From Escherichia coli (GTDB lineage: Bacteria; Pseudomonadota; Gammaproteobacteria; Enterobacterales; Enterobacteriaceae), in assembly GCF_003334355.1 (NCBI RefSeq), contig NZ_QOWP01000009.1: 64,000 nt of DNA; one strand, written 5' to 3'. The translations under genes and the position numbers were made by a program. Positions 35,920-42,292 of this stretch are shown here, piece by piece. The notes beneath the pieces were generated by a model that saw only the letters and a list, made by a program, of their open reading frames with translations, ran no database searches and had not been told where the DNA came from. The stretch's first letter is position 1, and every line of letters begins with the position of its first letter.

Positions 35920-36343
35920 CTGGTGGTTCGCCACATCACCCCGCCTCCGCCAGCTTTGCTGGGCATTCTGGTTGCTGATGTTAGTTACGCTCATTTTTCT
36001 GTCATCGACACACCATGAAGAGCGCGACGCATTAATTCGACTACGGGCAAGTCATCACCAGCAGTGGGCCGCACTGTATCGCCTGGTAGACACCACTCCC
36101 TTCAGCGAGGAAAAAACGCTGCCCTTTTCGCCACTGGATTTTCAGTTATCCGGCGCGCAACTGGTTTCCTGGCATCCATCCGCGCAGGGAGGCGAGTTGG
36201 CGTTGAAAACGCTGTGGGAAGCAGTGCCGTCGGCATTTACACGGCTGGCAGAGCGCAACGTCAGCGTGAGCCGTTTTTCGTTAAGCGTGGAAGGTGATGA
36301 TCTTTTGTTCACGCTACAACTGGAGACGCCGCATGAGGGTTAA
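35903..36343 (+). CDS. hofO: HofO (PilO-like)
   Basis: 146 aa; N-terminal TM helix. Confidence 0.85.
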   Translation: MNMFFDWWFATSPRLRQLCWAFWLLMLVTLIFLSSTHHEERDALIRLRASHHQQWAALYRLVDTTPFSEEKTLPFSPLDFQLSGAQLVSWHPSAQGGELALKTLWEAVPSAFTRLAERNVSVSRFSLSVEGDDLLFTLQLETPHEG

Positions 36344-36737
36344 ACGCTGGTTGTTGGCAGGTATTGCATTGTGCCTTTTAACCGGTATGCGTGACCCTTT
36401 TAAACCGCCGGAAGATCTATGCCGGATTAGCGAACTTAGCCAGTGGCGCTATCAGGGGATGGTAGGGCGAGGCGAGCGCATCATCGGTGTAATAAAAGAC
36501 GGGCAAAAGAAATGGCGACGGGTGCAGCAAAACGATGTGCTGGAAAACGGCTGGACAATTTTACAGCTGACGCCAGACGTACTAACGCTGGGTACCGGGA
36601 CAAACTGCGAACCGCCACAATGGTTGTGGCAACGGCAAGGAGATACAAATGAAGCAATGGATAGCCGCACTACTGTTGATGCTGATACCCGGCGTACAGG
36701 CGGCAAAGCCGCAAAAAGTGACGCTGATGGTGGATGA
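36333..36737 (+). CDS. hofP: HofP (PilP-like lipoprotein)
   Basis: 134 aa from the ATG at 36333 (MRVKRWLLAGIALCLLTGM...); 3' end overlaps hofQ by 89 nt in another frame. Confidence 0.8.
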   Translation: MRVKRWLLAGIALCLLTGMRDPFKPPEDLCRISELSQWRYQGMVGRGERIIGVIKDGQKKWRRVQQNDVLENGWTILQLTPDVLTLGTGTNCEPPQWLWQRQGDTNEAMDSRTTVDADTRRTGGKAAKSDADGG

Positions 36738-37887
36738 CGTTCCGGTAGCTCAGGTGTTGCAGGCGCTGGCTGAACAGGAGAAGTTGAACCTGGTCGTGTC
36801 GCCAGACGTCAGCGGTACGGTGTCGTTACATCTAACAGATGTTCCCTGGAAGCAGGCACTACAAACTGTAGTGAAAAGCGCCGGACTGATAACGCGGCAG
36901 GAAGGCAACATTCTCTCAGTGCATTCCATTGCCTGGCAGAATAACAATATCGCCCGCCAGGAGGCGGAGCAGGCGCGGGCGCAGGCAAATCTGCCGCTGG
37001 AAAATCGCAGTATAACCCTGCAATACGCCGACGCGGGAGAACTGGCGAAAGCGGGGGAGAAGCTACTGAGTGCCAAAGGGAGTATGACCGTCGATAAACG
37101 CACCAATCGCCTTTTGCTACGAGATAACAAAACGGCGTTAAGCGCGCTTGAACAGTGGGTAGCGCAAATGGATCTGCCGGTCGGGCAGGTTGAGCTGTCG
37201 GCGCATATTGTCACCATTAATGAAAAAAGTTTGCGTGAGTTAGGCGTGAAATGGACGCTGGCCGATGCGCAACACGCTGGTGGCGTTGGGCAAGTCACCA
37301 CGCTTGGTAGCGACCTCTCCGTAGCGACGGCGACAACGCATGTCGGTTTTAACATTGGGCGCATCAACGGACGCTTGCTGGATCTTGAGCTTTCCGCGCT
37401 CGAACAAAAACAGCAGCTGGATATTATCGCCAGTCCGCGTCTGCTGGCCTCACATCTTCAGCCTGCCAGCATTAAACAGGGGAGCGAAATTCCATATCAG
37501 GTTTCCAGCGGGGAAAGTGGCGCGACGTCGGTGGAATTTAAAGAGGCCGTCCTGGGGATGGAGGTCACGCCCACGGTGTTACAAAAAGGTCGCATCCGGC
37601 TGAAATTACACATCAGCCAGAACGTTCCGGGGCAGGTGCTACAGCAGGCCGATGGCGAAGTGCTGGCGATTGATAAGCAGGAGATCGAAACGCAGGTCGA
37701 GGTCAAAAGCGGAGAAACGTTGGCGCTGGGCGGCATTTTTACCCGTAAAAATAAATCGGGTCAGGATAGCGTACCGTTGCTTGGCGACATTCCCTGGTTC
37801 GGGCAATTATTTCGTCATGACGGAAAAGAAGATGAACGACGCGAGTTAGTGGTGTTTATCACGCCACGACTGGTTTCCAGTGAGTAA
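36649..37887 (+). CDS. hofQ: Secretin HofQ (PilQ/ComE-like outer-membrane channel)
   Basis: 412 aa; signal peptide 'MKQWIAALLLMLIPGVQA'; secretin C-terminal domain. Confidence 0.9.
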   Translation: MKQWIAALLLMLIPGVQAAKPQKVTLMVDDVPVAQVLQALAEQEKLNLVVSPDVSGTVSLHLTDVPWKQALQTVVKSAGLITRQEGNILSVHSIAWQNNNIARQEAEQARAQANLPLENRSITLQYADAGELAKAGEKLLSAKGSMTVDKRTNRLLLRDNKTALSALEQWVAQMDLPVGQVELSAHIVTINEKSLRELGVKWTLADAQHAGGVGQVTTLGSDLSVATATTHVGFNIGRINGRLLDLELSALEQKQQLDIIASPRLLASHLQPASIKQGSEIPYQVSSGESGATSVEFKEAVLGMEVTPTVLQKGRIRLKLHISQNVPGQVLQQADGEVLAIDKQEIETQVEVKSGETLALGGIFTRKNKSGQDSVPLLGDIPWFGQLFRHDGKEDERRELVVFITPRLVSSE

Positions 37888-38287
37888 ACAGCCGTAAAAG
37901 CGGTAATGTTTTTACGCTGAACGTGTTTCATCTATTTGACGCGCGCAGGTATTTAGCATACAAGGAGTACCGATTTGAGAGTTGGTGCTCTTCGCTGCCT
38001 GCGTTCCATGATGATGATTTATCATTCAGGCGGCATTTTGCTGTCTTTTTTACGCTAATCTTACCCGGTGATTTATCGCCAGAGCGGTGGTAGCAAGGCA
38101 GCGCGCTTGCAGCGACCAGATATGCAGAGGGATGGGTGATTTATTCAGTTGCCAAACCCGCTGGAGTATTGAGATAATTTTCAGTCTGACTCTCGCAATA
38201 TCTTATGAGGTTTCAGTTCATGTCCTGCGGCGCTCTCTGAGCGAAGCGGGTTTATCATTAACGAATAGTCTTAGTAGTACCGAAAAA

Positions 38288-38809
38288 ATGGCAGAGAAAC
38301 GCAATATCTTTCTGGTTGGGCCTATGGGTGCCGGAAAAAGCACTATTGGGCGCCAGTTAGCTCAACAACTCAATATGGAATTTTACGATTCCGATCAAGA
38401 GATTGAGAAACGAACCGGAGCTGATGTGGGCTGGGTTTTCGATTTAGAAGGCGAAGAAGGCTTCCGCGATCGCGAAGAAAAGGTCATCAATGAGTTGACC
38501 GAGAAACAGGGTATTGTGCTGGCTACTGGCGGCGGCTCTGTGAAATCCCGTGAAACGCGTAACCGTCTTTCCGCTCGTGGCGTTGTCGTTTATCTTGAAA
38601 CGACCATCGAAAAGCAACTTGCACGCACGCAGCGTGATAAAAAACGCCCGTTGCTGCACGTTGAAACACCGCCGCGTGAAGTTCTGGAAGCGTTGGCCAA
38701 TGAACGCAATCCGCTGTATGAAGAGATTGCCGACGTGACCATTCGTACTGATGATCAAAGCGCTAAAGTGGTTGCAAACCAGATTATTCACATGCTGGAA
38801 AGCAACTAA
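38288..38809 (+). CDS. aroK: Shikimate kinase I
   Basis: 173 aa from the ATG at 38288 ([22 protein letters not shown], Walker A); the ORF track extends 67 codons upstream in frame. Confidence 0.96.
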
Positions 38810-38865
38810 TTCTGGCTTTATATACACTCGTCTGCGGGTACAGTAATTAAGGTGGATGTCGCGTT

Positions 38866-39954
38866 ATGGAGAGGATTGTCGTTACTCTCGGGGAACGTAG
38901 TTACCCAATTACCATCGCATCTGGTTTGTTTAATGAACCAGCTTCATTCTTACCGCTGAAATCGGGCGAGCAGGTCATGTTGGTCACCAACGAAACCCTG
39001 GCTCCTCTGTATCTCGATAAGGTCCGCGGCGTACTTGAACAGGCGGGTGTTAACGTCGATAGCGTTATCCTCCCTGACGGCGAGCAGTATAAAAGCCTGG
39101 CTGTACTCGATACCGTCTTTACGGCGTTGTTACAAAAACCGCATGGTCGCGATACTACGCTGGTGGCGCTTGGCGGCGGCGTAGTGGGCGATCTGACCGG
39201 CTTCGCGGCGGCGAGTTATCAGCGCGGTGTCCGTTTCATTCAAGTCCCGACGACATTACTGTCGCAGGTCGATTCCTCCGTTGGCGGCAAAACTGCGGTC
39301 AACCATCCCCTCGGTAAAAACATGATTGGCGCGTTCTACCAACCTGCTTCAGTGGTGGTGGATCTCGACTGTCTGAAAACGCTTCCCCCGCGTGAGTTAG
39401 CGTCGGGGCTGGCAGAAGTCATCAAATACGGCATTATTCTTGACGGTGCGTTTTTCAACTGGCTGGAAGAGAATCTGGATGCGTTGTTGCGTCTGGACGG
39501 TCCGGCAATGGCGTACTGTATTCGCCGTTGTTGTGAACTGAAGGCAGAAGTTGTCGCCGCCGACGAGCGCGAAACCGGGTTACGTGCTTTACTGAATCTG
39601 GGACACACCTTTGGTCATGCCATTGAAGCTGAAATGGGGTATGGCAATTGGTTACATGGTGAAGCGGTCGCTGCGGGTATGGTGATGGCGGCGCGGACGT
39701 CGGAACGTCTCGGGCAGTTTAGTTCTGCCGAAACGCAGCGTATTATAACCCTGCTCACGCGGGCTGGGTTACCGGTCAATGGGCCGCGCGAAATGTCCGC
39801 GCAGGCGTATTTACCGCATATGCTGCGTGACAAGAAAGTCCTTGCGGGAGAGATGCGCTTAATTCTTCCGTTGGCAATTGGTAAGAGTGAAGTTCGCAGC
39901 GGCGTTTCGCACGAGCTTGTTCTTAACGCCATTGCCGATTGTCAATCAGCGTAA
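38866..39954 (+). CDS. aroB: 3-dehydroquinate synthase
   Basis: 362 aa; downstream of aroK in the aroKB operon. Confidence 0.96.
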
Positions 39955-40045
39955 CAACAAGAAAGGTCAGGCCGCTTATCAAGCGGTCTATTAGCTTCAG
40001 GTTAATTGCAACGTGGTAAGCATTAACCTTTTAGTGGGGTGTTAA

Positions 40046-41332
40046 ATGGATGAATTCAAACCAGAAGACGAGCTGAAACCCGATCCCAGCGATCGTCGTA
40101 CTGGTCGTTCTCGTCAATCTTCTGAACGTTCTGAGCGTACTGAACGTGGCGAACCGCAGATCAATTTTGATGATATTGAACTTGATGACACTGACGATCG
40201 CCGTCCGACTCGTGCGCAAAAAGAGCGCAATGAGGAACCGGAAATCGAAGAAGAAATTGACGAATCCGAAGATGAAACCGTGGATGAAGAGCGCGTAGAG
40301 CGTCGTCCGCGTAAGCGCAAAAAAGCAGCCAGTAAACCCGCTTCTCGTCAGTATATGATGATGGGCGTCGGCATTCTGGTTCTACTGCTGTTGATCATCG
40401 GTATCGGTTCTGCGCTAAAAGCCCCCTCGACCTCTTCCAGCGATCAAACCGCGTCTGGCGAGAAGAGTATTGATCTTGCAGGCAATGCGACCGATCAGGC
40501 GAATGGGGTGCAGCCAGCGCCGGGAACCACGTCTGCGGAAAATACTCAGCAGGATGTTTCTCTGCCACCGATCTCTTCTACGCCGACTCAAGGGCAAACC
40601 CCGGCGGCAACGGATGGTCAACAACGTGTTGAAGTGCAGGGTGACCTGAACAATGCGCTGACCCAGCCACAAAATCAGCAACAGTTGAACAATGTGGCGG
40701 TCAATTCCACATTGCCGACCGAACCCGCGACTGTCGCGCCTGTTCGCAATGGCAATGCATCGCGTGACACGGCGAAAACGCAAACCGCTGAACGTCCGGC
40801 CACTACGCGCCCAGCTCGTCAGCAGGCGGTGATTGAACCGAAAAAACCGCAAGCAACCGTGAAAACGGAGCCGAAGCCGGTAGCACAGACGCCGAAGCGT
40901 ACTGAACCAGCTGCCCCTGTGGCGAGCACGAAGGCACCGGCTGCGACTTCTACGCCAGCACCAAAAGAGACGGCGACTACGGCTCCAGTACAGACGGCAT
41001 CCCCGGCGCAAACCACGGCAACACCAGCCGCTGGAGGGAAGACCGCAGGTAATGTTGGTTCGTTGAAATCGGCACCGTCCAGCCATTACACTCTGCAGCT
41101 GAGCAGTTCCTCTAACTACGACAACCTGAACGGTTGGGCGAAGAAAGAGAATCTGAAAAACTACGTTGTCTATGAAACGACGCGTAATGGTCAGCCGTGG
41201 TATGTCCTGGTTTCTGGCGTGTACGCTTCGAAAGAAGAGGCGAAAAAAGCGGTATCTACATTGCCAGCAGATGTTCAGGCCAAAAACCCGTGGGCGAAAC
41301 CGCTGCGTCAGGTACAGGCCGATCTGAAGTAA
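40046..41332 (+). CDS. damX: Cell division protein DamX (SPOR domain)
   Basis: 428 aa; acidic N-terminus, one TM helix, long Pro/Thr/Ala/Gln-rich low-complexity linker, C-terminal SPOR-like domain. Confidence 0.93.
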
Positions 41333-41438
41333 TCAAGGTTATCTCCCGCAATGGTTTATCGTTGCGGGAGCTGCCTGAAGCGCTGGATGCTGTCGGAGCT
41401 TTCTCCACAGCCGGAGAAGGTGTAATTAGTTAGTCAGC

Positions 41439-42275
41439 ATGAAGAAAAATCGCGCTTTTTTGAAGTGGGCAGGGGGCAAGTATCCCCTGCTTGATGATAT
41501 TAAACGGCATTTGCCCAAGGGCGAATGTCTGGTTGAGCCTTTTGTAGGTGCCGGGTCGGTGTTTCTCAACACCGACTTTTCTCGTTATATCCTTGCCGAT
41601 ATCAATAGCGACCTGATCAGTCTCTATAACATTGTGAAGATGCGTACTGATGAGTACGTACAGGCCGCACGCGAGCTGTTTGTTCCCGAAACAAATTGCG
41701 CCGAGGTTTACTATCAGTTCCGCGAAGAGTTCAACAAAAGCCAGGATCCGTTCCGTCGGGCGGTACTGTTTTTATATTTGAACCGCTACGGTTACAACGG
41801 CCTGTGTCGTTACAATCTGCGCGGTGAGTTTAATGTGCCGTTTGGCCGCTACAAAAAACCCTATTTCCCGGAAGCAGAGTTGTATCACTTCGCTGAAAAA
41901 GCGCAGAATGCCTTTTTCTATTGTGAGTCTTACGCTGATAGCATGGCGCGCGCAGATGATGCATCTGTCGTCTATTGCGATCCGCCTTATGCACCGCTGT
42001 CTGCGACCGCCAACTTTACGGCGTATCACACAAACAGTTTTACGCTTGAACAACAAGCGCATCTGGCGGAGATCGCCGAAGGTCTGGTTGATCGCCATAT
42101 TCCAGTGCTGATCTCCAATCACGATACGATGTTAACGCGTGAGTGGTATCAGCGCGCAAAATTGCATGTCGTCAAAGTTCGACGCAGTATAAGCAGCAAC
42201 GGCGGCACACGTAAAAAGGTGGACGAACTGCTGGCTTTGTACAAACCAGGAGTCGTTTCACCCGCGAAAAAATAA
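41439..42275 (+). CDS. dam: DNA adenine methyltransferase (GATC)
   Basis: 278 aa; catalytic 'DPPY' motif ('CDPPYAPL'). Confidence 0.97.
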
Positions 42276-42292
42276 TTCTCAAGGAGAAGCGG

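Follow-up and report, generated by a model that had tools for sequence, protein, structure and literature searches.

Like any long open reading frame (ORF) that lies opposite a known gene, the minus-strand ORFs in damX of Escherichia coli raise the question of whether a second gene is hidden there or whether the frame is open for some other reason. The question concerns two ORFs, of 223 and 65 aa, seen in a 64,000-nucleotide stretch of E. coli DNA (contig NZ_QOWP01000009.1 of assembly GCF_003334355.1; the whole stretch is called the window here). An earlier sequence-only reading of the window had set them down to the nucleotide bias of a repeat in the damX linker rather than to extra genes. 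Both ORFs lie where that reading had placed them (Table 1), and the peptide it quoted is part of the DamX translation. Our answer is that both are almost certainly non-coding shadow ORFs, that the frame is opened by the codon choice of damX, and that the linker varies in length through small in-frame indels. What we observed directly in the sequences compared was the geometry of the frames, the codon counts, the signatures of selection, the absence of conservation and the indel alleles.

The damX gene and its linker

The identity of the sense gene is secure. DamX of the window matches the NCBIfam equivalog NF008153 with 851.4 bits against a cutoff of 256, its residues 1-428 lying on profile positions 1-424. 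One E. coli genome with the very same damX as the window has the gene order aroK-aroB-damX-dam-rpe-gph-trpS, and the order is unchanged in Salmonella, Citrobacter and E. albertii, where damX again sits between aroB and dam. Its DNA is single-copy in 5,426 of 5,426 complete E. coli genomes and is annotated as damX in every one. DamX of E. coli K-12 is likewise a full-length equivalog at this place in the operon, and its long periplasmic linker leads to a SPOR domain at the C-terminus. The window allele shares 98.7% DNA identity with K-12-type strains, from which it departs only by allelic differences that are mostly synonymous and concentrated in the linker. Against one K-12-like strain, for instance, 16 of 17 differences fall in codons 101-338, and the cytoplasmic, anchor-plus-linker and SPOR parts hold 0, 16 and 1 differing sites, respectively.

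Table 1. Positions of damX, its parts, the minus-strand ORFs and the sites of linker length variation within the window
Feature	Position	Strand	Basis
damX CDS, cell division protein DamX, 428 aa	40046-41332	+	ORF listing, NCBIfam, synteny
Hydrophobic stretch, presumed membrane anchor, aa 103-124	40352-40417	+	Read from translation
Periplasmic low-complexity linker, aa 125-344, Ala/Thr/Pro/Gln-rich, T-poor	40418-41077	+	Composition
SPOR domain, aa 345-418	41078-41299	+	Pfam PF05036, E = 3.7e-14
Probable shadow ORF, 223 aa, ATG start, in-register antisense frame	40415-41086	-	ORF listing, frame analysis
Probable shadow ORF, 65 aa, GTG start, antisense frame with third positions facing damX third positions	40819-41016	-	
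Pro/Thr/Ala-rich linker core, aa 288-331, holding most in-frame indels	40907-41038	+	Alignment
Site of 12-nt in-frame insertion (ACGCCAGCCGCA, TPAA), 432-aa alleles	40951-40952	+	Strain GF4-3
87-nt (29-aa) in-frame deletion, 399-aa allele, between imperfect direct repeats CACCGGCTGC / CACCAGCCGC	40943-41029	+	

DamX has been described as a bitopic inner-membrane protein with a single transmembrane segment, which localizes to the septum and binds denuded glycans, and its periplasmic linker exceeds in size those of all other inner-membrane SPOR proteins (PMC7642682). The linkers of FtsN and DedD likewise form a disordered tether from the membrane anchor to the SPOR domain, with that of DamX being the longest of these (PMC7642682). 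In the window, residues 124-347 consist of 16.5% Ala, 15.2% Thr, 12.1% Pro and 9.8% Gln. The segment is best read as the disordered Pro/Thr/Ala/Gln-rich periplasmic tether that joins the presumed membrane anchor to the C-terminal SPOR domain, which binds peptidoglycan.

The sequence-only reading had called this segment a repeat linker, a description that does not apply at the DNA level to the window allele. Even at its most permissive setting, Tandem Repeats Finder reports no array within 40300-41100, and an exact-seed repeat search of the linker returns only two-copy matches of 12-18 nt, which is chance level. With both tandem and dispersed searches giving nothing beyond such pairs, the term was dropped. 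The sole tandem array lies upstream of the linker, at 40120-40147 on the plus strand, where a 9-nt unit (TTCTGAACG) occurs three times and supplies the residues SER-SER-TER of the cytoplasmic DamX domain. One SER unit of this array is missing from an E. coli allele of 425 aa, and a gap of 5 aa is seen at the same place in Salmonella and Citrobacter.

Frame geometry and the length of the open run

The 223-aa ORF runs in register with damX, the first base of each antisense codon standing opposite codon position 3 of the sense gene. In this frame, a stop is possible only opposite a sense TTA, CTA or TCA. These closing codons are scarce in damX: TCA is used for none of 35 Ser and TTA for none of 23 Leu, and CTA occurs just twice, at codons 113 and 124, both Leu codons of the hydrophobic stretch. 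The only in-register antisense stops inside damX are thus at 40417 and 40384, each opposite a sense CTA, and the next one upstream is at 41335. Because damX uses no TTA, CTA or TCA after codon 124, the antisense frame stays open for 306 codons; the open stretch begins at 41334, immediately beyond the damX stop codon, and ends at 40418. The 223-aa ORF begins at 41086 because this is the first ATG, GTG or TTG within the open frame.

How much of this openness is due to linker composition? The linker DNA is indeed biased, with GC up to 0.61, AT skew up to +0.48 and, at 40700-41050, only 39 T in 351 nt (11%). Under local codon usage, 1.15 closing codons per 100 are expected in the linker compared with 2.62 in the SPOR part. 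Moreover, shuffles of synonymous codons and of codon order yield long runs in several alternative frames. These points favor a reading in which biased nucleotide composition in a repetitive linker is by itself enough to produce the shadow ORFs, with no effect at the codon level, which is what had first been proposed. However, the open run continues for 83 codons (41087-41334) through the SPOR-coding part, whose composition is normal, therefore linker composition is not the whole cause, and there is no DNA repeat. Under local usage, the linker would lack closing codons altogether with a probability of 0.07, and the SPOR part with one of 0.08, nearly the same value. The remaining four alternative frames hold 10-27 stops inside damX and 1-5 each within 40700-41050, and their run lengths are at or below shuffle expectation. 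Finally, mrcA, pckA, frlB and rpe have comparable or longer runs in the same frame and no biased linker. A purely nucleotide-level cause is therefore very hard to sustain, and the proposed origin in the nucleotide bias of a repeat has to be given up. Linker T-poverty contributes to the open antisense frame and is not sufficient for it; what opens the frame of the main ORF is that damX, over two-thirds of its length, avoids TTA, CTA and TCA as codons. The expectation of long shadow ORFs on both strands also fails, since the alternative plus-strand frames are open for at most 76 and 52 codons, equal to or below what shuffling gives.

The run in damX is no outlier at its locus, as can be seen by looking at the surrounding genes. 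Nine of the 40 genes annotated in this region contain a stop-free stretch of 200 codons or more in the in-register antisense frame: mrcA (401), frlB (340), damX (304), pckA (260), frlA (244), frlD (239), envZ (234), yhfW (218) and rpe (216). In rpe (42293-42970), which has one closing codon, the same effect produces a 215-aa ATG ORF on the minus strand (42317-42964) that covers nearly the whole gene.

Shuffling leads to a similar view. When damX codons are permuted among synonymous sites, a run of at least 305 codons is obtained with P = 0.35, and when codon order is shuffled, with P = 0.26. If the DamX protein is instead written with codons drawn from average local usage, the median run is 162 codons and P(≥305) falls to 0.03; the chance of zero closing codons after codon 124 is then 0.007, a figure that is post hoc. 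This mild excess over average usage arises because damX is a gene with few rare codons, the 10th lowest of 40 on an independent rare-codon index. Across these 40 genes, the larger the share of TTA, CTA and TCA among Leu plus Ser codons, the higher that index tends to be (Spearman 0.55, p = 2.5e-4). In mechanistic terms, damX, by using few rare codons, keeps its in-register antisense frame open, and the linker helps by being poor in Leu and T. The length of the 223-aa ORF is explained by the amino-acid and codon usage of damX. For the 65-aa ORF, the frame has an open run of 88 codons, which shuffles reach with P = 0.6-0.93.

We also considered whether selection for an antisense gene lies behind the avoidance of TTA, CTA and TCA in damX. 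This was rejected, as the avoidance follows rare-codon avoidance across the locus and synonymous diversity is not lowered in the overlapped part, where it reaches its maximum for the operon. The geometry itself is familiar. So-called frame -1 antiparallel shadow ORFs have stops only opposite TTA, CTA or TCA and show Ka/Ks above 1 when non-coding (bioRxiv 10.1101/724807), and the damX antisense frame is alike on both counts. Between damX and these published ORFs, we see no difference of substance; it is one of many at the locus. Earlier shadow-ORF work by Merino (1994) and Mir (2012) is cited in the same preprint.

Coding signatures, conservation and signals for expression

Whether the 223-aa ORF is more than an open frame can be approached through polymorphism, between-species comparison and the signals that accompany a gene. 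The alternative to a shadow ORF is a genuine antisense overlapping gene that encodes a young, lineage-restricted protein. Antisense genes are reportedly present in EHEC and Pseudomonas, which could serve as precedents. The ORF is long and ATG-initiated, its run exceeds the expectation from average local usage at the P = 0.03 given above, and antisense overlapping genes in E. coli have been reported (PMC6294744). The EHEC gene asa described there resembles the damX case in being a long ORF opposite an annotated gene. However, asa-type genes are experimentally supported, whereas the damX ORF is known from sequence alone and has neither conservation nor a coding signature.

Selection signatures were taken from nine E. 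coli strains, that is, the window plus eight genomes. In the overlapped part, segregating sites fall 5, 4 and 44 times on damX codon positions 1, 2 and 3, which places 44 of the 53 polymorphic sites on the first codon position of the 223-aa ORF. Read in the damX frame, these strains give a piN/piS of 0.066; the in-register antisense frame gives 4.8, and there is no purifying selection in the ORF's own frame. The frame of the 65-aa ORF gives a low value, 0.085. This was rejected as coding evidence because its wobble positions are shared with those of damX, an artefact also argued for such antisense frames in bioRxiv 10.1101/724807. Codon usage points the same way. With a log-odds score built from 39 neighbouring genes, the damX frame is the sole positive one at +0.19 per codon, the other frames ranging from -0.24 to -0.72, with the 65-aa ORF at -0.44. 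The translation of the 223-aa ORF is also odd in composition, with 25.6% Arg, 13.5% Leu and 5.8% Cys.

Within E. coli, the ORF is intact in eight of the nine strains, a point in favor of a gene; in the ninth, a CCA-to-TCA change places an extra antisense stop inside it. Beyond the species, the frame is broken. E. albertii has a TTA at damX codon 214, mid-way in the E. coli ORF, and Salmonella and Citrobacter have seven and four closing codons, all at different places. In E. albertii, Salmonella and Citrobacter, start-to-stop ORFs of that frame reach 137-142 aa at most and have other boundaries. The antisense ORF is not conserved between species. The earlier view that these are not extra genes is therefore upheld: coding-type constraint is found in the damX frame alone, and interspecies conservation of the antisense ORF is absent.

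Signals that might drive or identify an antisense product are likewise missing where they were sought. In a consensus scan for promoters and terminators, the minus strand has a single promoter-like site, at 40197-40170 and so downstream of both ORFs, and none upstream of 41086; the bases before the 41086 ATG contain no clear Shine-Dalgarno sequence. Neither antisense product has an NCBIfam match, nor has a +1 nested ORF (described below), and an Rfam scan of 36000-45000 is likewise empty. The exact 65-aa sequence is absent from a collection of 15 billion proteins. For the 223-aa ORF, gene finders have predicted the identical sequence as a protein in nine assemblies of metagenomes or reads, always unnamed. 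These calls can be counted for the antisense gene; they show that the ORF can pass a gene finder and are not proof of expression. Literature searches returned no report of antisense translation in damX, and a translation screen by PIRT-Seq covered only a same-strand nested candidate in this gene (PMC12350097). Taken with the inverted polymorphism pattern, the breaks in other species and in one E. coli strain, the negative codon-usage score and the presence of similar ORFs in nine of 40 neighbouring genes, these observations leave a genuine antisense gene with next to no probability. We infer that antisense translation is absent from damX.

The nested candidate deserves separate mention. Just upstream of the interval flagged in the sequence-only reading, a 50-aa GTG ORF lies in the +1 frame of damX (40146-40298, plus strand). 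It is the ‘nested gene within damX’ that was picked for SPA-tagging in the PIRT-Seq study (PMC12350097): the published tagging primer is an exact match to 40246-40295, so that the tag precedes the TAG at 40296-40298. The candidate was detected in one replicate only (PMC12350097). In strain GF4-3, a stop occurs five codons past the GTG, and in Salmonella the nested frame is open yet divergent.

The same strains reveal an uneven distribution of diversity along damX. E. coli diversity is concentrated in 40346-41059 (damX codons 101-338). Pairwise synonymous diversity is 0.088 in the linker or overlapped segment, a value that may be inflated by the choice of four of the nine strains for their insertion allele, compared with 0.016-0.020 in the cytoplasmic and SPOR parts. 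Among the neighbouring genes, aroK, aroB and dam are at about 0.022, and rpe and gph are also high, at 0.065-0.074. The peak could be a recombination mosaic or a local mutational effect. Two 421-aa damX alleles from ENA metagenome contigs (P0007 and P0008) combine a Salmonella/Citrobacter-like N-terminal cytoplasmic part with an E. coli-type linker and SPOR domain, which suggests either intergeneric recombination within damX or a chimeric assembly.

Length variation of the linker

The sequence-only reading had also marked the linker as a hotspot for length variation and had proposed an alignment of damX from multiple strains. This part of it is borne out. The alignment contains in-frame linker indels of 2-40 aa, mostly in the Pro/Thr/Ala-rich segment, and natural length alleles of DamX span 389 to 433 aa. 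In-frame deletions of 21, 23, 29, 39 and 40 aa and a 4-aa indel all fall within aa 288-331, and deletions of 13, 26 and 28 aa occur elsewhere in the linker. One 22-aa deletion removes part of the acidic cytoplasmic region. Rarer alleles carry EP and VAP duplications in the linker. All indels are multiples of three, and none lies in the membrane anchor or the SPOR domain.

The common variant is the TPAA insertion. The inserted ACGCCAGCCGCA follows 40951 and is a near-copy of the next 12 nt, ACGCCAGCACCA. Care is needed in counting it. ‘Spread’ samples from the complete-genome set, 30 genomes in one and 60 in the other, returned one length variant only and under-reported the 432-aa allele, and an insertion-bearing query was therefore needed. 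With that query, at least 226 of the 5,426 genomes carry the insertion (≥95% identity, ungapped), and another 4,740 match at 80-90%, as expected from a 12-nt gap. A damX of 1299 nt is annotated in three of the 226 (E. coli HS, strain 127 and S1-INA-02-B). The 399-aa allele is found on 11 contigs, all from draft assemblies. An exact copy of it would rank first in a search of the 5,426 complete genomes but does not appear at the top of the list; with a query across the deletion junction, the top-ranked matches all consist of two pieces over the undeleted 207 nt.

How do these alleles arise? Linker length would change when short direct repeats, imperfect in sequence, give rise to small duplications or deletions that keep the frame, probably by slippage or microhomology; such changes would be tolerated in a tether that presumably has no fixed fold. 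Two related readings were tried and rejected. The linker is not a tandem-repeat locus, in that even the 432-aa alleles hold just two imperfect 12-nt copies, and it is not a contingency locus, since every indel seen is a multiple of three and leaves damX intact.

The length polymorphism might instead be adaptive, for example by tuning the periplasmic reach of the SPOR domain or by answering phage pressure. DamX 432 aa in length is present on at least 1000 contigs and occurs in E. marmotae and E. albertii as well, and the 428/432-aa pair of Escherichia is matched by a 425/429-aa pair in Salmonella that varies at about the spot of the TPAA insertion. The low piN/piS of the linker (0.066) implies that the tether is not free of constraint, and a role of DamX in T4 infection is reported (PMC11054660). 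However, all indels sit at short direct repeats, as mutation bias predicts, and the large deletions are singletons or rare. We therefore regard an adaptive origin as unlikely, and prefer indels produced by mutation and tolerated in the linker.

A bolder proposal can be put in two forms: that the in-register antisense ORF, or a shorter piece of it, is occasionally transcribed and translated in E. coli as a very young Arg-rich protein not yet visible to selection or, more mildly, that the TPAA polymorphism affects divisome reach or phage entry. Either would be a considerable surprise on present evidence. If true, a translated antisense ORF would be a case of de novo antisense gene birth in damX. 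On the preferred reading of shadow ORFs opposite a length-variable linker, damX, its shadow ORFs and its variable low-complexity linker are all of already-known kinds, with no departure from them. The value of the result is mainly negative, in that a 223-aa ATG ORF opposite a known gene is the sort that gene finders sometimes call. In damX, the ORF can be dismissed by simple tests, which look at the geometry of the frame, at codon counts, at where in the codon polymorphisms fall and at other species. Beyond this, the catalogue of DamX tether-length alleles could serve tests of linker length in the function of SPOR proteins.
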